Virus record (IMG/VR): IMGVR_UViG_3300037088_000361 | Span: 32,001-96,000 of that record | DNA: 64,000 bases | Origin: a virus | Reading direction: 5' to 3' (one strand) | In this document: piece by piece, positions 15,409-49,706 of the stretch | Numbering within the stretch: position 1 is the first letter of the stretch | Layout: the number at the start of each line of letters is the position of its first letter | Notes under the pieces: generated by a model | Databases searched by the model: none | The model's input: the letters and a program-made list of their open reading frames with translations, nothing else | What the model was told of the DNA's origin: nothing | Position numbers and translations under genes: made by a program

Positions 15409-16311
15409 TTAGGCTGCAACAGCCTCCTGAGACGGGACTGGAGTAGTGTGGCGGCCGCAAGTGCAGGGCTTGTTGCGGTTGATGTTCCAACGCTGGCAGT
15501 TGGTTATCGCTGTGGCTTTGGCGTGGGAAGCCTGCCATTTAGGGTCGGCGTGCATCTTAGCCAAGCCTGCGATGTGAGCAGCCCGCCATTCAGGGTCAGC
15601 GTGCGTCTTAGCCAAGGATGCTGCTTGAGAAGCCTTATATTCAGGGTCAGCGTGCATCTTAGCCATAGCTGCCGCGTGATTCTTCTGCCATTCAGGGTCA
15701 GCAGCATTCCTAGCTATGCCTGCGGCGTGTGCAGCTTTCCATTCAGGGGCGGCGTGCGTCTTGACCAAGGCTATGGCGTGATTCTTCTGCCATTCAGGGT
15801 CAGCATGCATCTTAGCCAAACGTGCGGCGTGCGCAGCCTTCCATTCAGGTCTAGAAGCACCCCTAGCTGCACCTGCGGCGTGTGCAGCTTTCCATTCAGG
15901 GTCAGCAGCATTCCTAGCTGCGCCTGCGGCTTGGGCATCCTTCCATCCCTGATATGCCGCTTCGTCGTCAAATACAACGAACGCCCGCATAAAGTTATAT
16001 CCCCTTCCACTCTCAGGCTGGAAGGTCTGCAGTTTGTCCATCCATTGGTTCTCAAGCTGGACCGCCAAGGTTAGTACTTCTGACTTCGTGTTTGCGGTGA
16101 CTGAATCGACTGTCTCAAGGCGGAAGCTATCCCTGCCCCGTGAGGCTATCTCACGGTCAAAAGGAATTTCGTTATCACGGCAATGGCGCTTGTCTCGGAA
16201 CTCAACATCCCAAGCGGAGCCGGTATACTCAGGCAAGCCCGTGATTATGCAGAAATAGCAGTAGATGAAGCGTGTTAAGGATTTGATGGTATCTGTAGTG
16301 GTTGTCATCAC
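15409..16311 (-). CDS. Divergent GIY-YIG-like endonuclease with ADPEW tandem repeats
   Basis: FIYCY...YTG..., E..W...L.T.....GYN; about 17-20-aa repeats containing ADPEW. Confidence 0.65.
   Translation of the reverse strand: MMTTTTDTIKSLTRFIYCYFCIITGLPEYTGSAWDVEFRDKRHCRDNEIPFDREIASRGRDSFRLETVDSVTANTKSEVLTLAVQLENQWMDKLQTFQPESGRGYNFMRAFVVFDDEAAYQGWKDAQAAGAARNAADPEWKAAHAAGAARGASRPEWKAAHAARLAKMHADPEWQKNHAIALVKTHAAPEWKAAHAAGIARNAADPEWQKNHAAAMAKMHADPEYKASQAASLAKTHADPEWRAAHIAGLAKMHADPKWQASHAKATAITNCQRWNINRNKPCTCGRHTTPVPSQEAVAA
15520..15935 (-). repeat. Imperfect 51-60-nt coding tandem repeats (core CCATTCAGGGTCAGC on +)
   Basis: The core recurs throughout and encodes the ADPEW repeats. Confidence 0.8.
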
Positions 16312-16360
16312 CTATAGTATACATCAGAATATGAGAATTTACCAAGAATTCTTATGGTGG

Positions 16361-19300
16361 CTAAAAAGAAAGCATAACACGATTCGGAATGTGGGGCTCA
16401 TAAGCGAAGGTATCGGAATCAAGAGCTTTGCCCACAACTACCACCCATTGACAGTCTTGGAGCACACTCCCCTCAAAATTTTGGGTAATCACACCTCCGA
16501 CGCCGACATATAAAAGACCACCAGGGGTCCAACCTGCGGCGGGGACTGAGAAGACTGACCCATATCCCGTCGCTATGGTCACGGGCTGTCCCGCCGTGAC
16601 GCTGGATAGGGTCACCCCGTCCACGAACGGATAGACATCATAGGGGAACGGGGGGGACAAGCTTGACGGATTAAAATTAACGGTCGTGGGGTCAATCGGT
16701 TCCACCTCCCCGTACTGGTCTACGAAGACCGCCGTGAGGGCTGGCATACTCACCTTGGCTGTCAGGGTCAGAGTTCCCCCGGAGGTGGGGGATGGTGGAA
16801 CAGGAGGTGTAACATCGGGTGATGACTGATATAGGACGGTGCTGAACATCGAGCCTGCGATGACGAACTGGTCATCTGACAGGTTGTGAGTCGCTATCAC
16901 AGTGAGGATATCCCCTTCGTTGAGGTTTACGGTGTCCCCGAACGGCAGGTTGACGGGTCCTGCTTGTAGTGGGGTGGACGCCGTGATGATGGCAACAGGG
17001 GATGGTGGGGAGCCGGAAATCGGGGTAAGGTAAACAGTGACAGTGCGGACCCCCGCTTCACCCCCGCCAATCGGTGGACTGCCGGGACCGCTAAAATTGA
17101 TTTGTCCACTGACCGCATACGCCCCGGTCGCCTGTATGGTAAAGGTGCTCGTGGTGGTGACGTAATTAGTTTGGTCAAAATCGATTTTGTCAAAGCTCAC
17201 TACCGCTCCTCCTCCCGGAGGGCTTACGGTATTGGGCAGGACATCAGTGATATCATTTACAGATTCCACTTGGAACCCGAAGTTGGATGCTGACTGCGCC
17301 TGCTGTTGAGCCAAAGATATAGCATTGTCAAACTCACCCTGGATAACGGTCGAGTACACCATCAAACTAGCGGCCGACATATTGCACTGTAGCATCGCCG
17401 CCTGCACAGGGATGGGTAACACCTGTATGTCAGGGCGGGACAAAAATGCGACCGGGTCAAAGCTCGTTCCTGTCCATCCGCTGGCCGCAGGTGTCGTCGT
17501 GGTGTTGGAAGTATAGACCACGACAGGGACGGTCGAGAACGGGAGCAGGGGGAATCCCGGTACCCATGTGCGGTTACGGCTGGCGGTGTCCACCTGTATG
17601 GCGCTGAAAATGGTCAGGTCGCCGAGCGGGTCGATGGCGGAGTCCAAGGACAGGGGGTAGGCGGACACAATGCCGACAAGATAGGGGTCCTGCACGAGGA
17701 GCGCCTGCAGGTTGCCGTTGAACTCCCTCCAGAACTGGCTGAACCTGTCCACTACCGTGGCTATAGCAAACTGGTCATAGGTGTAGCGGTATTGTGGCTG
17801 CGGACTTTGGTATGTGGTGTCAAGCAAAATCCTAGCCGCTGCTGTAGTGATGACCTGCTGGAGATTATTGGTGAGGGCGGACGGGAATGTGCAGGACACT
17901 GGATAAGTCGCCAACCCTTCCCCGAGGACGATAGTCGTCGTCTCGGTCTTGACGATGTTTAGCATCGCATAGTCGAGGTCCGTTCCCGTGAATGTGCCCA
18001 CATAGTTGTTGTCGGCATATCCGTCCCATGTGGTATTACGGATGTAGCCCAGCATTGCCGCCTCGACATACGATAGCTTCCACAGGGCATTCCCCTGCTC
18101 CTCGGTGGGAACAGGAGGAGAACTGGGTGGAGATAGCGTGATGATGAACGGCAGCCCAGTTGGACCAGCAGTAAGTGTATCCCCCGGCAAAACACGATTC
18201 CATGGCACGGGGGTGGTGCTGAGGTAGTCCACGGACGGCTGCACGAAGGTTTGATATGCATCATCAAAACTTGGCAACCATTGTCCCTGCCTGCCGGTGC
18301 CACTTGGATTGTTGCGTGCCCCGCTGACATAGTAGAGCCACGCCGCCGTCAGGTTGGGCTCGAAGTTGCTGGAGACCACCTGACCGAGGGTGACATACCT
18401 TGCAAGGTCCTTGCGGAGGGTTGCCGGGACTTGGGTGGTGACATCAGGGAGAAGACCGGGGATGGTGCTTAGGATGTTCGCCGCATAGGTCTGCGGGGGC
18501 ATCTGGTAATCGCTGATGATGGTATTGGGGTCGGGCAAACTACCCTGCATCGAGGTAAACGGGTTGAAGGTGCCAGATACCTGCTCGGTAACCGGGGGAG
18601 ACCCACTGGTCACGGGATAAGTATAGGACGGGTCCACGGTATAATAGGGGACATCCGTTGTGGTCTGCATCTTCTGGAAGAAGGGACCGCTGCTGAGGTT
18701 AACCCCAGTATTGGGGATGATGCCGCCAAGCGGTGGGACGATAGGCGGTGCCCCATAGGTCAGCCCGTTGTAGGAGTTCACGGTCGAGGGGTAGTTTTGA
18801 AGCACATTCACATTAGGCAGGTGGATGTTGCACTGCTTGAAGGCGAAGTTAAAATCGAAGTTCGGGTGTGGGATGAAGGACGCCAGCGGGAAGAAGTTGA
18901 ACCCGTTCCAGTTCCAGATGTTGTCTGAGAAGAGATTGGGGATGGCCGGGAGGTCCGGGATGCCCCAATTGCATATGTCGTGGAGCAAGGAGGCAATGGC
19001 GTTGAGGTTCTCCTGAATCATCGCCAAGATGTTCGCCTCCATAGACTGGAGGATACCGATGTTCTTGGTGAGTGCTGAGATAAGTTGGATGATGTTCCGC
19101 TGGAATGCGGAGACCTGCTGCATAAAGCTTATGATGTCGTAGCCAAACTTAAGGCTGCGGATAGGGTTGTCAAACTTTCCGTCCGTCCCTAGCTTCACAT
19201 GGTTGAAAAGTGACTGTATATGGTCGAGGGCGTGCTTCTTCTCCTCCATCAACCAGTTGTTGGCGTCAGTGATGGACTTCTGCATCTCCCTGCCGTCCTC

Positions 19301-42008: not shown

Positions 42009-42051
42009 TGTTGGGATTTGTGAACCATAGAATTTGGTATTAAAGGGTGCT

Positions 42052-42750
42052 ATGGAATACAATTTTAACAACTCTAAACTAATATGTGGTATCTACCGAA
42101 TCTTTCTGATTGGGACAGAACATAGTTATGTGGGTCAGGCTAAAAACATCAAGGTTAGGTGGCGGCAACACAGGTGGGGTCTGTTGAAGGGAGTAAACAG
42201 GGCTGTTAGGCTTCAAAGAGCGTGGAACAAGTACGGTGAAGACGCTTTCCAGTTTGAGATTCTTGAGGAGTGCTTGTGTGAACCTAACATTCTCCTTCTA
42301 AGAGAGCAACATTGGATGGACAAGCTTCGGGCGTATAAGGCGGGATTCAATTCTACCCCTCATGCTGGATTATCAACCTTTGGCATGCGGTTTTCTCCTT
42401 CAACAAGAAAGAAACTATCTGAAAAACGAAGAGGTAGGGTAACCTCAGAACAAACTAGATTAAGGCTTAGCCAAAAGATGAAAAATCGGGTATTTTCTGA
42501 AGAGCATTTGAGGCATTTGGCAGAAGCCGGACGGCGACGTATGTTGAATTCTCCAGACCGTAATAAACTTGGAGAATGGTCCAAGAATCATCCGCAGATA
42601 GGAGCAGCCAACGCTTTTTATGGTAAACATCATTCAGAAGAAACTAGAAAGATTATCTCGGAAAACCATATTGGTAAAAACCACTCAGAAGAAACCAAGG
42701 AGAAAATCCGGCAAGCACATTTAGCTAGAAGCACCCCCACCCTTGTTTGA
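42052..42750 (+). CDS. GIY-YIG homing endonuclease with NUMOD3 repeats
   Basis: GIYRI....SYVGQA and HSEETRK repeats; immediately downstream of nrdJ. Confidence 0.88.
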   Translation: MEYNFNNSKLICGIYRIFLIGTEHSYVGQAKNIKVRWRQHRWGLLKGVNRAVRLQRAWNKYGEDAFQFEILEECLCEPNILLLREQHWMDKLRAYKAGFNSTPHAGLSTFGMRFSPSTRKKLSEKRRGRVTSEQTRLRLSQKMKNRVFSEEHLRHLAEAGRRRMLNSPDRNKLGEWSKNHPQIGAANAFYGKHHSEETRKIISENHIGKNHSEETKEKIRQAHLARSTPTLV

Positions 42751-44492: not shown

Positions 44493-44882
44493 TCACATAG
44501 ATTCTCCGTTGTGTTTTTTCAGATACTCTATTGCTTTCAGCAATGTTGATATATTTTCTTTGAAATTACCAATCCCAGCGTTGCAGTTCATACAAAGCAG
44601 TTCACGGGGGTTACCGGTGGTATGATTGTGGTCCCCACATAGCTTTCTTTTATCTTTGCGGCCACAGATAACACAGACCTCATTTTGTTTTTTCATCGCG
44701 TCGTTGTATAAATCTATGTTCCACCCGGTGCGTTTCAAGGAGCATATATAGTTGGCGCTGTTTTGACATTTACGACATAGAGACTGTACTTTGAAACGCC
44801 TTGTGTTGTGCTTGGTGAACTTGGTTATATCCATCTCCCCACACGAGCAGCCACGGAACTCACGGTCTATCCATTTTCCCAT
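44493..44882 (-). CDS. Endonuclease VII-like HNH protein
   Basis: QN..C.IC...L..DH.H.TG..R.LLC..CN.G.G.F.E motif. Confidence 0.85.
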   Translation of the reverse strand: MGKWIDREFRGCSCGEMDITKFTKHNTRRFKVQSLCRKCQNSANYICSLKRTGWNIDLYNDAMKKQNEVCVICGRKDKRKLCGDHNHTTGNPRELLCMNCNAGIGNFKENISTLLKAIEYLKKHNGESM

Positions 44883-44940
44883 AAAATCCTCCTACTTAGG
44901 AGATGGTAGTCAAAAAATAATCAAATTTTTTAACTTTTGG

Positions 44941-44949
44941 TGGTATTAT
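44941..44949 (+). promoter_or_regulatory. Extended -10 promoter (TGgTATTAT) for the leader/tRNA operon
   Basis: TGn plus TATTAT about 20 nt upstream of the leader ATG, in an AT-rich upstream region. Confidence 0.55.
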
Positions 44950-44969
44950 ATAGAAGTAGGGAGATTGTC

Positions 44970-45080
44970 ATGAATATGGCCACTCACATCACTCTAGGCG
45001 ACATTGAAGCAGTAGGTATAGCCGAAGCCGCCGTCGTGTGTGAGGGAGGCGATACGTCGCCTTCGGGAGGGTTGGGATAG
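44970..45080 (+). CDS. Attenuator leader peptide MNMATHITLGDIEAVGIAEAAVVCEGGDTSPSGGLG
   Basis: GGGAG RBS 6 nt upstream; codons 10-28 encode only G/D/I/E/A/V/C; overlaps alternative hairpins. Confidence 0.75.
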   Translation: MNMATHITLGDIEAVGIAEAAVVCEGGDTSPSGGLG

Positions 45081-45107
45081 AAAATCCTAATTTTGAATCC
45101 CGAAGGC
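45045..45107 (+). promoter_or_regulatory. Anti-antiterminator (45045-45064) and antiterminator (45059-45107) hairpins
   Basis: GGAGGCGA-TACG-TCGCCTTC; GCCTTCGGGA pairs perfectly with TCCCGAAGGC, with inner stem GGTTGGGAT/ATCCTAATT. Confidence 0.75.
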
Positions 45108-45138
45108 ACCTAGAAAGCTTAGGTGCCATTTTTGTTTT
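45105..45138 (+). terminator. Intrinsic terminator (attenuator) upstream of the first tRNA
   Basis: GGCACCTA-GAAAGCT-TAGGTGCC followed by ATTTTTGTTTT. Confidence 0.8.
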
Positions 45139-45149
45139 ACAGCACATTT

Positions 45150-45227
45150 GTTCCGGTGCGGCGAGTGGCTAAGCCAGTTGCCTTACAAGCAACCAATTCG
45201 GGGGTTCGAGTCCCTCCCGGAACACCA
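45150..45227 (+). tRNA. tRNA-Val(TAC)
   Basis: GTTCCGG/CCGGAAC acceptor, GTTGC-CTTACAA-GCAAC, TTCGAGT loop, CCA. Confidence 0.9.
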
Positions 45228-45238
45228 AAATTGGATAT

Positions 45239-45316
45239 GCCCCGATAGCTTAGTGGCTTCAAAGCGCCACCTTCACACGATGGAGAACACAGGTTCGAGT
45301 CCTGTTCGGGGCACCA
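45239..45316 (+). tRNA. tRNA-Val(CAC)
   Basis: GCCCCGA/TCGGGGC, loop TTCACAC, one anticodon-stem mismatch, CCA. Confidence 0.85.
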
Positions 45317-45322
45317 AGTAAG

Positions 45323-45371
45323 TCCGCTGAGGTCCAGCGGCAGGACACCGGCTCTGACACGCCGGTCAACG
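45323..45371 (+). pseudogene. 5' half of a degenerate tRNA (D-arm and anticodon-like arm; Gln CTG or Val GAC ambiguous)
   Basis: GTCC-AGCGGCA-GGAC D-arm and ACCGGC/GCCGGT stem; no T-arm or 3' acceptor strand. Confidence 0.4.
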
Positions 45372-45410
45372 TAAACAGGGGCTGCGACAATGCCCCCACA
45401 AGATTTAAGT

Positions 45411-45543
45411 CTTGCCTTGTGGCGGCGAAAGCCGCAGCAGCCTGTGGAAAGGCTGTAAATAGAGAGGCATCCAAGACTGGCTCGTCCCGTTCGATTCGGG
45501 ATATAGTGTCTCTGGGGAATAGTAGGCCAGTCCACAAGGCGAG
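45411..45543 (+). ncRNA. Unknown structured RNA
   Basis: 12-bp closing stem CTTGCCTTGTGG/CCACAAGGCGAG, GAAA tetraloop hairpin, T-loop-like TCCCG-TTCGATT-CGGGA. Confidence 0.55.
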
Positions 45544-45550
45544 TTTTTTA

Positions 45551-45628
45551 GCGGGAATAGCTCAGTTGGTAGAGCGCAACCTTGCCAAGGTTGAGGTTTC
45601 ACGGGTTCGAACCCCGTTTCCCGCTCCA
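45551..45628 (+). tRNA. tRNA-Gly(GCC)
   Basis: GCGGGAA/TTCCCGC, CAACC-TTGCCAA-GGTTG, TCCA. Confidence 0.95.
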
Positions 45629-45633
45629 AGTTT

Positions 45634-45709
45634 GGGCCTGTAGCTCATTTGGCAGAGCGCCTGTTTTGCAAGCAGGAGGCGAAGGGTTCAAATCCCTTTA
45701 GGTCCACCA
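45634..45709 (+). tRNA. tRNA-Ala(TGC)
   Basis: G3-U70, loop TTTGCAA, ACCA. Confidence 0.93.
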
Positions 45710-45713
45710 AGTT

Positions 45714-46253
45714 TTAGGCATACTTAGACATTCCTCGTGATTGTCTTCCGTTGCCTTTGTTACGACCGCAGAAAGTTGGAGTTTGGCTGGTGCAGTTAGG
45801 GCATAATAGACGTACATTGTTTGGTTTGCTGTCTCCAGCGTTTCCATCTATGTGGTCTACAACCATGGTGATGGGTTTGTCGCACCAAATAGGAGGAAGT
45901 CCACAGATTTCACATCTGTTTCCTCTTTTTTCAATGAGGATGTTACGGATGGTGCTCCTTTTGGTTACTTGACCTAACTCAAACCTTTTTACGGCCTGAG
46001 AGTAGAGCGACCCCCTACTTACCGGCTTAGGTTTCTTTGGTCTTTTGGTGTTTGTTATCGTTGCAGAGCACGAGCTAGAGCAGTAAATGTTTGTAAAGCG
46101 TTTATTGTATGAAATAGGTTCTTGACAGCATAAACATCTTTTAGGGTTGAGCAGGTACCTAGCCTCATTTTTAGCTGTTCTGCTTACATTACTGCAAGAT
46201 AGGGAACAGTAAGTGTATCTGGTTTCTCTTTTGCAGATTAAGCAGTTATTCAT
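45714..46253 (-). CDS. HNH endonuclease with Zn-binding CSxSC repeats, antisense inside the tRNA array
   Basis: CEICG...VDHIDGN..D....N.RLLCPNC.SQT motif. Confidence 0.88.
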   Translation of the reverse strand: MNNCLICKRETRYTYCSLSCSNVSRTAKNEARYLLNPKRCLCCQEPISYNKRFTNIYCSSSCSATITNTKRPKKPKPVSRGSLYSQAVKRFELGQVTKRSTIRNILIEKRGNRCEICGLPPIWCDKPITMVVDHIDGNAGDSKPNNVRLLCPNCTSQTPTFCGRNKGNGRQSRGMSKYA

Positions 46254-46263
46254 GCAGTTTTTG

Positions 46264-46338
46264 GCGGGACTGATGTTAATGGCAGCATGTCACCCTTCCA
46301 AGGTGAACGTACCGATTCGACTTCGGTGTCCCGCTCCA
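46264..46338 (+). tRNA. tRNA-Gly(TCC)
   Basis: GCGGGAC/GTCCCGC, TCACC-CTTCCAA-GGTGA, TCCA. Confidence 0.9.
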
Positions 46339-46381
46339 ACCTCCTAATTAGGGGGTCGAAAGTTAGTTTTCGTTAGGTTTT

Positions 46382-46455
46382 GCGGGTATGGTATATTGGC
46401 TGTGCCCAACCTTCCCAAGGTTGTGAAACGGATTCGATTTCCGTTACCCGCTCCA
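46382..46455 (+). tRNA. tRNA-Gly(CCC)
   Basis: GCGGGTA/TACCCGC, CAACC-TTCCCAA-GGTTG, TCCA. Confidence 0.9.
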
Positions 46456-46462
46456 AGATGTA

Positions 46463-46607
46463 GTCGCTCCAAGGGCTGTCGAAGCTGACGAGCGGCGAGG
46501 TCTCGCAAACAGGGACCCCGAGTAAGGGGGGCTGTGGTGGTCTCCCCGAAACGGGTCCCTACGTGGCGGGACCTGCGGATGACTGACCTAACCAGTCGGT
46601 TGTCCCA
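46463..46607 (+). ncRNA. Unknown structured RNA (long interrupted hairpin with AGUA/GAA loop-E-like motif)
   Basis: AGGTCTCGC/GCGGGACCT, AGGGACCC/GGGTCCCT and GGGGGGC/GTCTCCC stems, plus flanking small hairpins. Confidence 0.5.
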
Positions 46608-46616
46608 AATTTTTGT

Positions 46617-46691
46617 GGGCTCGTGGTGTAGTGGGAGCACGTATCGCTGGCAGCGATAAGGTCGGGAGTTCAAATCTCCCCGAGTCCACCA
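46617..46691 (+). tRNA. tRNA-Ala(GGC)
   Basis: G3-U70, TATCG-CTGGCAG-CGATA, ACCA. Confidence 0.9.
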
Positions 46692-46695
46692 AGTT

Positions 46696-47064
46696 TGGCT
46701 GGTAGTACTATGTCAGAGGCACCGTTATGGTGTGGGCTATCAACGGCTCATGGGTGGAATTCCCACGGGGCTACCAGCCATTATTTTATGGGCGGCGTGG
46801 TCTGTGTTGCAACACAGATGCACTAACGGGCGTGCTCCATGTACAAGGGTACGCTAAGCGTAACATGCCGCCCACCAAGTTTGCTGCTGAATAGAGAAGG
46901 CAGACGAAGTTGATTTTACTGTCCTGAGTTCAGCAGCCAAGTTTTGGCGGTCCATGCTCGCAGAGGGTGTGGGTGCTGGGTTGAGTTGGGTAAAGTAGGG
47001 GCTCCGTTTTATCAGGGTACCAAGTTCTGAGAGGAGTCAAAGCTATCCCGGCGTTACCCGCCAA
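46696..47064 (+). ncRNA. Four tandem stem-closed, CCA-ending non-tRNA RNAs (46696-46780, 46790-46877, 46883-46939, 46944-47064)
   Basis: Each has complementary 5'/3' ends and is separated by the same short A/T-rich spacer seen between the tRNAs. Confidence 0.55.
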
Positions 47065-47071
47065 GAGTTTA

Positions 47072-47148
47072 GGGTATGTGGAGCAGTTGGAGTGCTCGCC
47101 ACTCTGTCACAGTGGAGACCGGGGGTTCGAGTCCCCTCATACCCGCCA
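47072..47148 (+). tRNA. tRNA-Asp(GTC)
   Basis: GGGTATG/CATACCC, CCACT-CTGTCAC-AGTGG, G73, CCA. Confidence 0.93.
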
Positions 47149-47156
47149 TTTGAAAT

Positions 47157-47228
47157 GTGCCCATAACTCAGCGGTAGAGTGCCATCTTGACAGGGTGGAG
47201 GCGGTAGGTTCGACTCCTACTGGGCGCA
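47157..47228 (+). tRNA. tRNA-Val(GAC), no encoded CCA
   Basis: GTGCCCA/TGGGCGC, CCATC-TTGACAG-GGTGG, TTCGACT loop. Confidence 0.88.
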
Positions 47229-47273
47229 CATTGATAGACTTTTGAGTATCTATATAAGAGGTGCTCAGGGTCT

Positions 47274-47903
47274 ATGCTCTATACGGTCTACAAGACGACT
47301 AACCTTGCCAACGGCAAGTACTACTTTGGCGTCCACAAGACCGATAACCCAAATGATGACTATCTTGGGTCGGGGAAGTATATTAAAGCTGCTATAGCCA
47401 AACACGGTGAGGCGGCCCTTAAGAAAGAGGTTTTGTTTATCTACCTCGACGCTGAATCAGCGTTTGGTAAGGAAGATGAGCTAATCCAAACTTGGCGTGG
47501 TCGAGACCCACTGTGTATGAACTTGAGGAAGGGTGGCTCAGGTGGGTTTGACTGGATAAATAAAAAGCTCAATCAAGAATGGAGAAAGAGGGCAGCACAG
47601 ACAACAAATATCCACATCTTCAAACGTCGGGAATCGGATATTGAGTATAAGAACTTGGATGTTGCTCGTAGGAGAAGAAATTTTCTGTCCCTTTCTAGCG
47701 AATGGTATAAACAACGGGGGATGGCGGTTGCTAAAATAGGATGTGCAGCAGCGGCAAAAGTGAATTTCAAAGCGCAAGAACATGAGCTAGTTTTAAAATT
47801 ATATAAGCAAGGAATCTCGAAAAGTCAGATAGTTCGTCAAGTTGGCGTTGCAAAAAGCTCTGTTTTCTTGTGGATTAAACAAGCTTTGTTTTTGGGCGTG
47901 TAG
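47274..47903 (+). CDS. Seg-like GIY-YIG homing endonuclease with C-terminal HTH
   Basis: TVYKTTNL.NGKYYFGVHKT....DDYLGSG; C-terminal GISKSQI..Q.GV.KSSV..W. Confidence 0.88.
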   Translation: MLYTVYKTTNLANGKYYFGVHKTDNPNDDYLGSGKYIKAAIAKHGEAALKKEVLFIYLDAESAFGKEDELIQTWRGRDPLCMNLRKGGSGGFDWINKKLNQEWRKRAAQTTNIHIFKRRESDIEYKNLDVARRRRNFLSLSSEWYKQRGMAVAKIGCAAAAKVNFKAQEHELVLKLYKQGISKSQIVRQVGVAKSSVFLWIKQALFLGV

Positions 47904-47969
47904 CTCATCCGGGAGAGTGCAGCTTTCGCAAGGCTGAGGCGGTGGGTTCGAGTCCCATTACGTCCACCA
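47894..47969 (+). tRNA. tRNA-Ala(CGC)
   Basis: G3-U70, CAGCT-TTCGCAA-GGCTG, ACCA. Confidence 0.9.
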
Positions 47970-47976
47970 AATTCGT

Positions 47977-48050
47977 GGCCCGTTCGTCTAGGGGTAGGAC
48001 GGCAGATTCTCAATCTGCAAACAGGGGTTCAATTCCCCTACGGGCTACCA
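47977..48050 (+). tRNA. tRNA-Glu(CTC)
   Basis: GGCCCGT/ACGGGCT, GCAGA-TTCTCAA-TCTGC, CCA. Confidence 0.92.
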
Positions 48051-48100
48051 AGTTTCAACCCCCGCCATGCTAGGGGGAACACTGCATGACGGGAGGATAG

Positions 48101-48352
48101 ATGTTTACACTGTGGCATTGGTTTTTGAATTTCTTTTTTTGGCTGGTAAACTTGGTAATTTGGGTGATAAAAAACCCGGATGCCTTATTTACTTGGTTTT
48201 CCAAATGGGTAGTAATCGGGTGGATGGTGGTTCACACTATTCACTGGGCACGAGTGGAATACGTGAGGCTTTCCATTTCCACCGAGAGAAAGATTGCCAA
48301 GATTCGCCAGCCAGTGGACCCGAGTAAGGAGTCGGCTGAGGAAGAAGAGTAG
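48101..48352 (+). CDS. Small Trp-rich membrane protein
   Basis: 83 aa, GGGAGG RBS, hydrophobic N-half. Confidence 0.55.
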   Translation: MFTLWHWFLNFFFWLVNLVIWVIKNPDALFTWFSKWVVIGWMVVHTIHWARVEYVRLSISTERKIAKIRQPVDPSKESAEEEE

Positions 48353-48532
48353 GTATGAAAACGTGCTCTGCTTGCGGATTTAAGGGACGGTGGTTGACCC
48401 ATTTCTGTCCTGGACCCCCCGGACACGGGATTACTGACCTTGGGAACGGTTATATTTCCGTCGAGACTTTTCCCCTCTATCCGGCACAGGTGGTTGACCT
48501 TTCTGAAGCCAAGGAGCGAGATTTTAAGATTA

Positions 48533-48609
48533 GCACGGATACCCAAGCGGCCAAAGGGGATGGTCTGCAAAACCATTAGTCGTCAGTTCAAATCTGACTC
48601 CGTGCTCCA
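48533..48609 (+). tRNA. tRNA-Cys(GCA)
   Basis: GCACGGA/TCCGTGC, ATGGT-CTGCAAA-ACCAT, U73, CCA. Confidence 0.9.
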
Positions 48610-48616
48610 ATTTTAT

Positions 48617-48691
48617 GGCCTCATCGTCTAGCGGCTAGGACGGCAGACTTTCAATCTGCAAAGGAGAGTTCGACTCTCTCTGGGGCTACCA
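48617..48691 (+). tRNA. tRNA-Glu(TTC)
   Basis: GGCCTCA/TGGGGCT, GCAGA-CTTTCAA-TCTGC, CCA. Confidence 0.92.
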
Positions 48692-48696
48692 AATAT

Positions 48697-48791
48697 GGCG
48701 GACAGCACAGGCGTGCAGGCGGGTCCTATAAACCTGAAGTCGCCCTAGATAGGGGTGTCCGGCGTGGGTTCGAGTCCCCGGTCCGCTACCA
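48697..48791 (+). tRNA. Non-canonical tRNA with TAT anticodon (Ile?) and long variable arm
   Basis: GGCGGAC/GTCCGCT-A-CCA, short D-arm, CGGGT-CCTATAA-ACCTG, about 25-nt variable region, bulged T-stem with TTCGAGT. Confidence 0.7.
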
Positions 48792-48800
48792 AATTTTTTG

Positions 48801-48828
48801 TTGACAAATCATTTTTCAGTTGTATTAT
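48801..48828 (+). promoter_or_regulatory. Sigma70-type promoter upstream of tmRNA
   Basis: TTGACA-16 nt-TATTAT. Confidence 0.7.
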
Positions 48829-48917: not shown

Positions 48918-49281
48918 GGGGGCGTCAGGTTTCGACGGGGACGCTCATTCTCAAGAGGCATGCCGGGGGAGAGCCTAACACCACCCGTAATCGGTAAAGG
49001 GCAATGTACTTGCAGAACCACTTAGCATGTACGCTATGGCCTAAAGCGATTTAGGTCACATCCACTCTTCCAGACTCGCATGTAGGAGACCGGATGTCGA
49101 TATGGCGGGAGTAGTCTTGGCCAAGCTTGTAAGCCAAGGCGAATTACTGAAAGCTAGTCACGGCTCTTGTATCGCTCAGTACCTTGGAGCTGTGGCGAAA
49201 AGAAGTGGAACTGAGATAAGCATGTAGTCTCTTGACGGTGAAGTCTTTCGGACGGGGTTTCGATTACCCCCGCCTCCACCA
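48918..49281 (+). ncRNA. ssrA: tmRNA (ssrA); predicted tag (A)AEPLSMYAMA* at 49012-49044
   Basis: 5' GGGGGCGTCAGGTTTCGACGGG, GCATG/CATG helix, 3' GACGGGGTTTCGATTACCCCCGCCTCCACCA, G3-U70, 364 nt. Confidence 0.92.
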
Positions 49282-49630: not shown

Positions 49631-49706
49631 GCGGGGTTGACACATTGGTTGCGTCCCGGCTTCCCAAGCCGTGGTTAAGTGAGTCCGATTCTCACACCCC
49701 GCTCCA
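49631..49706 (+). tRNA. Second, divergent tRNA-Gly(CCC)
   Basis: GCGGGGT/ACCCCGC-TCCA, loop TTCCCAA; T-loop TCCGATT and weak D-stem. Confidence 0.7.

Follow-up and report, generated by a model that had tools for sequence, protein, structure and literature searches.

A short leader element at positions 44941-45138 of a 64,000-nucleotide stretch of viral DNA (IMG/VR record IMGVR_UViG_3300037088_000361; hereafter the window) is, judging from its sequence, most probably a codon-matched, ribosome-mediated transcription attenuator of the leader-peptide type, which controls the phage tRNA array behind it. The window corresponds to bases 32001-96000 of a single viral contig of 127,843 bases, with 52% G+C and an estimated completeness of 41%. 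A preliminary description had interpreted the element as a leader peptide that samples the codons read by the downstream tRNAs, and the comparative analysis reported here establishes its sequence parts, the conservation of its open reading frame (ORF), the covariation of both of its competing helices and a match between leader codons and tRNA genes that recurs across array types. We also consider it fairly likely that huge phages possess a modular family of such leader-attenuators, one per tRNA sub-array and each written in its own codons, which would provide closed-loop, nearly isoacceptor-resolved control of tRNA supply. There has been debate for decades over the reason for tRNA genes in phages, and to our knowledge the control of their expression is essentially unknown.

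The leader ORF, its hairpins and the tRNA array

All features of the element lie on the plus strand. It begins with an extended -10-like sequence (TG-n-TATTAT, 44941-44949), which was read from the sequence and has a poor -35. The four closest relatives (loci L001, L002, L003 and L011) share this -10 block, with ATAG or ATGG behind it, and TTGACA-like -35 boxes are found ahead of the relatives' leaders, so that the conserved -10 block points to a promoter of the window leader. A Shine-Dalgarno sequence (GGGAG, 44959-44963) is positioned 6 nt ahead of the ATG of the leader ORF (44970-45080; protein P0002), which comprises 36 sense codons and a TAG stop; as the adjacent minus-strand gene has a strong Shine-Dalgarno sequence too, the system appears to use such sites. 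The ORF and its ribosome-binding site, between the -10 and the first tRNA gene, were thus found where the preliminary description had located them, and codons 10-28 (44997-45053), proposed as the sensing segment of array-cognate codons, as well as the later GGA and GGG codons, read exactly as it had quoted them. It had further counted 18 of these 19 codons as cognate or wobble codons of the array. At the default detection threshold 17 of the 19 are served, and the eighteenth depends on a tRNA-like gene with a UAU anticodon that is called in the window at a relaxed threshold.

The 3' part of the ORF overlaps a set of alternative hairpins, all of which are present at the positions originally assigned to them. 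Hairpin 1:2 (45045-45064; 8 bp with a 4-nt loop, -10.9 kcal/mol, z -4.27) would act as an anti-antiterminator and possibly as a pause hairpin. The antiterminator 2:3 (45059-45107; -28.4 kcal/mol, z -5.6) consists of an outer helix (45059-45068 with 45098-45107) around an inner hairpin (span 45069-45093, in which 45069-45078 pairs with 45084-45093), with the stop codon (45078-45080) at the top of the latter. Its 5' arm, region 2, falls in leader codons 30-33. The terminator stem-loop (45105-45127; 9 bp with a 5-nt loop, -13.1 kcal/mol) is also listed by the terminator scan and is followed by a T tract (45128-45138) that ends 11 nt ahead of the first tRNA gene at 45150. Positions 45105-45107 are common to the 3' end of the antiterminator and the foot of the terminator stem. 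The function of intrinsic terminators depends on the stem-foot pairs next to the U tract, and the loss of the three shared pairs weakens the terminator stem from -13.1 to -3.8 kcal/mol. The fold of 44955-45145 as a whole has a z of -3.02, and its sub-hairpins range from -4.2 to -5.6.

Behind the leader, ARAGORN detected 14 tRNA genes and one tmRNA gene between 45150 and 49706, of which Rfam confirmed 13 tRNAs and the tmRNA. The putatively regulated array (45150-48691, plus strand) contains 13 tRNA genes with homing-endonuclease and small ORFs interspersed, and presumably forms one transcription unit; the Gly(ccc) gene (49631-49706) lies beyond this main array. The 13 distinct anticodons (three each for Val, Ala and Gly, two for Glu, and one each for Asp and Cys) decode all GNN codons plus Cys.

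The codons of the leader match this array to an extent not expected from the codon usage of the long ORFs of the same genome, which served as the null. Twenty-one of 35 codons are cognate to the array (12.1 expected, P = 0.0017), and 12 of the 13 anticodons are sampled (7.4 expected, P = 0.0024), Ala-CGC being the sole anticodon missed, as the preliminary description had noted. The match is confined to the reading frame of the ORF, since in the other two frames only 8/34 and 8/34 codons match, covering 6 and 5 anticodons. The UAU tRNA-like gene (48697-48791, plus strand; 95 nt, with a long variable arm) was called by ARAGORN at the relaxed threshold only, and its homologues in loci L003, L011 and L059 pass the default threshold. 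Among the loci whose leaders resemble that of the window (Val-type loci), ATA codons occur in the leader at 4/4 loci with the UAU tRNA-like gene and at 0/9 loci without it; these 4 and 9 loci form two clades, so the association may reflect a single event. The leader of L001 has ATA as well, and its array runs off the end of the locus.

Conservation of the leader and its recurrence at other arrays

Relatives were fetched with the ribonucleotide reductase gene, which is situated 3 kb upstream, as an anchor, yielding 80 viral loci. The module was searched for with a leader profile and then with a covariance model, R1, built from an RNAalifold alignment of 15 leaders. In addition, the whole records of two complete relatives (G001, 463 kb; G003, 332 kb) were added to the window's own genome (G000), and all of their tRNAs were mapped. 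No close relative was found among deposited phages, where matches were at the tRNA level only and 0 records covered 80% of the query. The contig is contained in 20 sequencing runs, all of DNA or unknown type and mostly peat metagenomes; contigs from four runs across 44880-45240 carry no variants and are uninformative.

The same GNN-plus-Cys array was observed in 15 of the 16 loci with at least three tRNA genes. The leader profile found the module in L001-L009, L011-L014, L017 and L018, either directly ahead of the Val(tac) tRNA gene or ahead of an inserted homing-endonuclease gene (L008 and L009), and the same arrangement was seen in seven further contigs that two motif scans of the viral collection retrieved. 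The neighbouring genes vary between module-bearing loci. An ATG-started ORF of 31-46 codons is present in all 14 distinct Val-type loci, and an ORF is also found in 9 other leaders. Each Val-type leader contains at least one Cys codon (14/14) and misses 0-2 of the 4-13 distinct downstream anticodons, two of the arrays running off the locus end. The stop codon lies within the region enclosed by 2:3 in 14/14 Val-type loci and in every true R1 row. The preliminary description had named as damaging the case in which homologues keep the hairpins and lose the ORF or its codon content; in the Val-type loci both the ORF and its codon content are retained (14/14).

Substitution patterns indicate that the leader ORF is under coding-type constraint. 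Between the window leader and its closest relative, L001, there are 11 nucleotide differences, of which 9 are at third codon positions; 8 of the changed codons are synonymous and 2 non-synonymous (binomial test on these counts, P about 0.0014). The leader peptides are identical at 34/36 residues, compared with 76% for the ribonucleotide reductase encoded 3 kb upstream, and divergence is visible in the 5' untranslated stretch. Across 23 leaders (775 codons), the alternative frames carry 52 and 34 stops, frame +1 being open in 0/23 and frame +2 in 4/23; in the window ORF, the other two frames contain 4 and 2 stops. The signals for starting translation, either an ATG plus Shine-Dalgarno sequence or a leaderless start, are kept across leaders, and those of L007 and L008 look leaderless, with a -10 box 5-6 nt ahead of the ATG. 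The leader is thus presumably translated in vivo.

Both competing helices are supported by covariation. The RNAalifold consensus of the 15 leaders is the 2:3 helix itself, with 17 pairs, 14 of which show compensatory changes. In the alignment of R1 matches (A3, 24 rows, of which L007:2908-2989 and L036 are probably false and were kept in the pair counts), the set comprising 2:3 with its inner hairpin plus the inner portion of the terminator stem pairs in 89.5% of cells, compared with 65.6% in shuffles, and has a covariation score of 0.573, compared with 0.174; no shuffle of 500 reached this value, and slid controls stayed at or below 0.146. For the full terminator stem, 95.8% of cells pair over the 24 rows (71.0% in shuffles), with a covariation score of 0.665 (0.160 in shuffles, 0/500 reaching it; slid controls at or below 0.172). 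Column 125, in the middle of the triplet shared by the two helices, is A, G or C and covaries both with its partner in region 2 (UA 8, CG 7, GC 5) and with the 3'-arm base that it faces in the terminator stem (AU 8, CG 7, GC 7). As the terminator pairs at the shared triplet are absent from the model structure, they are not a product of the alignment method. The three states of the triplet largely track three sequence groups, with at least one extra switch (L017), so the number of independent events is small.

Modules of the same construction are found at other tRNA arrays, each with its own codons. In the window's own genome R1 identified exactly two modules. The second, outside the window (G000:C1:12520-12392, minus strand, equivalent to L081:2893-3022; profile match C1:12461-12386), has the same -10 block and a 24-codon ORF in which three different Thr codons alternate with both Gln codons in the middle and Ile codons also occur; the stop codon is again in the enclosed hairpin, and a terminator follows. 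About 1 kb further lie Ile(gat), which is a relaxed call, Thr(cgt), Thr(ggt), Thr(tgt), one unassigned tRNA and Gln(ttg), with an unknown ORF and an HNH-like ORF between the terminator and these tRNAs. Among five large relatives, 8 of the 14 lower-ranked R1 matches correspond to short ORFs directly ahead of tRNA arrays. The remaining 6 fall at the ends of longer genes that are not followed by a tRNA, so that R1 also matches ordinary gene-end terminators. Altogether, 13/13 of the examined R1 matches that end a short leader-like ORF are located upstream of tRNA genes, and the other 6 end longer genes.

In both complete relatives (G001, loci L128-L151; G003, loci L111-L127) the tRNA genes are grouped into arrays by codon family. 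Leaders were found at six of the seven arrays of G001, namely those for Ser (plus Leu-taa), Trp/His/Arg/Asn/Gln/Cys/Lys, Ile/Thr/Gln, GNN plus Cys, Tyr/Leu and Pro/Met/Phe, and at four of the five arrays of G003, each behind a sigma-70-like promoter with an A/T-rich block ahead of it. R1 did not detect the Tyr/Leu leader of G001 or the Pro/Met/Phe leaders, all of which were recognized by inspection of the sequence ahead of their arrays. One and the same 3' RNA module is combined with different leader codons at the Ile/Thr/Gln, Ser, Tyr/Leu and Trp/His/Arg/Asn/Lys/Gln arrays, and these paralogous modules share their 3' RNA part and have unrelated N-terminal peptide parts. For example, nine consecutive codons of the Ser leader comprise all six Ser codons and TTA, ahead of an array of four Ser tRNAs and Leu(taa), and the Trp/His/Arg-type leader contains all four CGN codons, both Lys and both His codons, plus Asn, Gln and Trp codons. 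Three Pro codons, Met and Phe are present in the Pro/Met/Phe leaders (G001:C1:345941-346044; G003:C1:about 78430-78258, minus strand), whose stop is likewise in the enclosed hairpin. The expectation that other arrays should have leaders with different codon sets therefore holds for the second array of the genome itself and for five array types in the two complete relatives.

Statistically, the true pairing of leaders and arrays ranks first of the 720 permutations possible in G001 and of the 24 in G003. Coverage of the downstream anticodons exceeds that of random codon strings in 12/12 leaders tested (P 0.00025-0.035), and the fraction of matching codons does so in 12/12 as well (P up to 0.017). 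When the 12 leaders are pooled, 153/343 codons match in frame, compared with 49/331 and 46/331 out of frame.

Several further features of these arrays deserve mention. A terminator-like hairpin, with its T run apart from the stem, occurs within the window array just ahead of Ala(ggc) (46577-46605, plus strand); if functional, it would limit the control of the leader to the first six tRNAs. The spacer between Val(cac) and Gly(gcc) (45317-45550, plus strand) measures 234 nt, compared with 8-83 nt in the closest relatives, and has a z of -2.96 and no Rfam match. The UAU tRNA-like gene is located between Glu(ttc) and the promoter of the tmRNA gene, and its long variable arm is odd for an Ile tRNA. 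The tmRNA gene (48918-49281, plus strand) has its own near-consensus sigma-70 promoter (48801-48828, 11/12 matches) and is probably outside the control of the leader. Homing-endonuclease genes (GIY-YIG, endonuclease VII and HNH-like) are positioned around and within the array at 42034-42750 (plus), 44493-44882 (minus) and 45714-46253 (minus), and in L008 and L009 the one that has been inserted behind the leader terminator, ahead of the first tRNA gene, lies at about 16275-16680. In the two complete relatives, arrays at G001:C1:238747-239667 (minus) and G003:C1:191550-192488 (plus) contain two or three tRNAs with a CUA anticodon (amber suppressors) plus Lys(ttt), which hints at TAG recoding in these huge phages; TAG is the stop codon of the window leader and of the Pro/Met/Phe leader of G003. 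A similar arrangement was noticed in a cultured, unrelated phage, Stenotrophomonas phage Moby (MN095772.1:80483-80619, equivalent to L168:4837-4973), where an ORF of 27 codons, Cys, Trp and Cys codons among them, ends in a long hairpin (z -5.31) whose 3' arm adjoins the annotated terminator, directly ahead of tRNA-Trp and tRNA-Cys. As the relatives of Moby are at least 98.9% identical, they allow no comparative test, and the case remains an anecdote.

Proposed switch and alternative explanations

We propose the following mode of action for the window leader. Host RNA polymerase would start near 44955, and a ribosome would translate the 36-codon leader. A ribosome that moves fast would reach the stop codon atop the enclosed hairpin and cover region 2, so that the terminator would form and transcription would end at about 45135-45138, ahead of the tRNAs. 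If, instead, the ribosome were delayed on Gly, Asp, Glu, Ala, Val or Cys codons, region 1 would be covered or region 2 left free, and region 2 would pair with region 3 once the latter had been made; the foot of the terminator would then be taken and the polymerase would read into the array. The tRNAs produced would in turn accelerate translation of the leader, so that the array would be switched off again, which would close a loop for tRNA supply on demand. As region 2 falls within the last codons of the leader and the stop sits atop the hairpin enclosed by 2:3, a ribosome finishing the leader would remove 2:3 and allow the terminator to form; as the leader needs the array's own products, the circuit would constitute negative feedback on tRNA supply. 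We infer this direction of the switch and, likewise, its physiological trigger, for which a mismatch with the host codon usage, depletion of host tRNAs in the course of infection or anticodon nucleases are the candidates, with amino-acid starvation as an alternative.

That leader translation matters but acts by another logic is unlikely in our view. In such a scheme the ribosome would unfold the RNA structure and thereby permit read-through or first-tRNA processing, with stalling lowering the output, or the leader would serve early/late timing. Folding gives this explanation some room. The effect of ribosome coverage on the fold, which the preliminary description had put forward as a check, is not a clean switch in the window, where the terminator persists in equilibrium folds with region 1 masked as well as unmasked, whereas the relatives of group B switch cleanly in the footprint simulation, with a ribosome upstream giving the antiterminator and a ribosome on region 2 giving the terminator. 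Untranslated group B RNA defaults to the antiterminator, and the Pro/Met/Phe leaders enter their first tRNA without a T-tract terminator, both of which would suit the other logic. Against it, region 2 and the stop codon are placed such that a terminating ribosome removes the antiterminator and not the terminator, a placement that holds in all array types found with R1, and codons specific to each array would be needless in a timing device.

A number of observations weigh against the attenuator interpretation or restrict it. In the window, the antiterminator and terminator overlap by 3 nt only. At equilibrium without region 1, the full terminator (-33.2 kcal/mol) is slightly preferred over the full 2:3 helix with a shortened stem (about -32.2 kcal/mol), and when a 30-nt ribosome footprint is walked along the leader codon by codon, 3 of the 9 terminator pairs are lost, at codons 10-13 and 26 only. 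Given the lack of a clean equilibrium switch, the switch in the window must be kinetic. Furthermore, region 1 is out of reach for a ribosome that has stopped as far upstream as codons 10-20, and some cognate codons may therefore have no effect; the earlier proposal that stalling at any of the 19 codons leads to read-through is doubtful, the early codons being equivocal by both geometry and equilibrium folding. A counterpart of hairpin 1:2 is found in L001, L002, L003 and L011, and in more distant leaders the pairing of region 2 with upstream sequence does not exceed shuffled controls. The extended -10 of the preliminary description is there as sequence, but the sigma-70 promoter scan of the region does not list a site at 44941-44949, owing to the poor -35. 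Terminator-like sites in the region number 8, with 8.2 expected from shuffles, and the cells counted in the covariation analysis are not independent events, many rows being related.

The codon match has limits of its own, which count on the same side. With GNN codons accounting for 34.5% of the codons of the genome, the enrichment in the leader is about 1.7-fold, and the choice among synonymous codons, given the peptide, has P = 0.23 in the window and 0.012-0.65 over the 12 leaders. By raw fraction of matching codons, a leader's own array is the best in 5/6 leaders of G001, 3/4 of G003 and 1/2 of G000; the exceptions tie with the GNN array or score just below it, as G is abundant in the structured 3' part of all leaders. 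The Tyr/Leu leaders hold several Ser codons that have no matching tRNA in the array. The Pro/Met/Phe leaders have a different 3' end, which runs into an unusually long first tRNA-Pro with no canonical T-tract terminator, and may work differently, and the suppressor arrays lack a leader and are positioned directly behind a protein gene. Finally, non-cognate N-terminal residues are kept at the amino-acid level, so the peptide itself could have a function.

This last observation leads to another explanation, that the element is simply a gene for a small protein, ended by a terminator of its own, or encodes a trans-acting peptide, and that its position and composition are unrelated to regulation of the array. 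The retention of residues that the array does not serve would fit, a terminator would normally end such a gene, and trans functions of terminated attenuator RNAs and leader peptides are described in two publications (PMC7298713, PMC6614838). The comparative data nevertheless make this explanation very improbable. The leader peptide has no family match in Pfam or PHROG; the paralogues keep the 3' RNA and differ in the N-terminal peptide, each fitting the array behind it; the stop codon is always within the helix that competes with the terminator; and neither the three-way covariation at the shared triplet nor the location of all 13 examined short-ORF matches of R1 upstream of tRNA genes would be expected of an unrelated protein gene.

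An RNA-only attenuator, bound by a protein, a small molecule or uncharged tRNA and containing an incidental open frame, seems equally remote. The 3' RNA module is indeed the most conserved part and common to all leader types; against an RNA-only device, however, stand the mainly third-position, synonymous substitutions, the retained start signals, and the single open frame with its frame-specific codon match. No Rfam family was matched at gathering or lax thresholds; over 44900-45160, with E up to 10, Rfam returned just two chance-level matches to unrelated families. The T-box model was among those without a match at either threshold, and a T-box identity was accordingly rejected. A plain terminator of the upstream gene was ruled out, since that gene (44493-44882, an endonuclease VII homologue) is on the opposite strand.

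Implications and comparison with known systems

If the attenuator interpretation is correct, these phages would measure translational capacity per codon family and make tRNAs only when needed, topping up decoding capacities that the host lacks or loses in infection, for example to anticodon nucleases. The leaders would be the first example in which translation of cognate codons regulates tRNA genes, and such control would explain the sorting of arrays by codon family. The rival rationales for phage tRNAs, namely codon compensation, host tRNA loss and anticodon nucleases, would become measurable, as depletion of one tRNA should turn on one array. A textbook mechanism would thus be extended to RNA genes whose product feeds back on the sensor, and the leaders would constitute compact natural sensors of tRNA availability, reusable in synthetic biology.

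Attenuation of the pheST type controls aminoacyl-tRNA synthetase genes, and cleavage of tRNA by VapC4 reportedly engages small ORFs. Leaderless short polycysteine ORFs of mycobacteria reportedly respond to Cys supply (bioRxiv 10.1101/834739). As in the leaders described here, some of which look leaderless, a leader ORF in the pheST-type and polycysteine systems couples the capacity to decode particular codons to gene expression. In those systems, however, one amino acid or tRNA is sensed and protein genes are regulated, never tRNA genes. It has been proposed that phage tRNA clusters serve codon-usage compensation, or supply substitutes for host tRNAs that anticodon nucleases have cut (PMC10264068). 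That work provides a rationale for the arrays and is about tRNA sequences, the words 'promoter' and 'terminator' occurring 0 times in its text. In a search of full-text literature, with subscription-only papers and supplementary files outside its scope, we found no paper on leader-peptide or attenuator control of tRNA genes or of phage tRNA arrays, in agreement with the preliminary description, which knew of no such case for a phage tRNA array.

T-box elements resemble the present leaders in that they sense tRNA status and use an antiterminator to control read-through of an intrinsic terminator. A T-box, in contrast, requires no translation, as it binds the uncharged tRNA itself, and its targets are synthetase, transporter and biosynthesis genes; here the ribosome would read the signal.

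The closest likeness is to the classical attenuators. The trp, his, leu, thr, ilv and phe attenuators work by hairpins that depend on the position of the ribosome, and respond to charged tRNA, including a reduced dosage of tRNA genes. Like trpL, hisL, leuL, thrL, ilvL/ivbL and pheL, the window leader has a promoter-proximal short ORF rich in regulatory codons, alternative 1:2, 2:3 and 3:4 pairings and an intrinsic terminator, the position of the ribosome being what would decide between them. Of the trp/his/ilv-type architecture claimed at the outset, the short ORF, regulatory codons, antiterminator and terminator are present, the last two with an overlap of only 3 nt, and the 1:2 hairpin is clear in the window and its close relatives only; thrL and ilvL, moreover, are multivalent for several amino acids, as is the window leader. 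There is no sequence or structure homology to the leader families of Rfam (Trp, His, Leu, Thr and others), which gave no match in the window at gathering thresholds. In contrast to the run of one codon in classical leaders, window-type leaders include codons for as many as six amino acids and for almost all isoacceptors that the array provides, and the overlap between antiterminator and terminator is 3-6 nt only. They are also phage-borne and form a paralogous family with one member per array. Most importantly, classical attenuators regulate biosynthetic enzymes, whereas here the regulated genes would be tRNA genes, whose product acts directly on the sensor.

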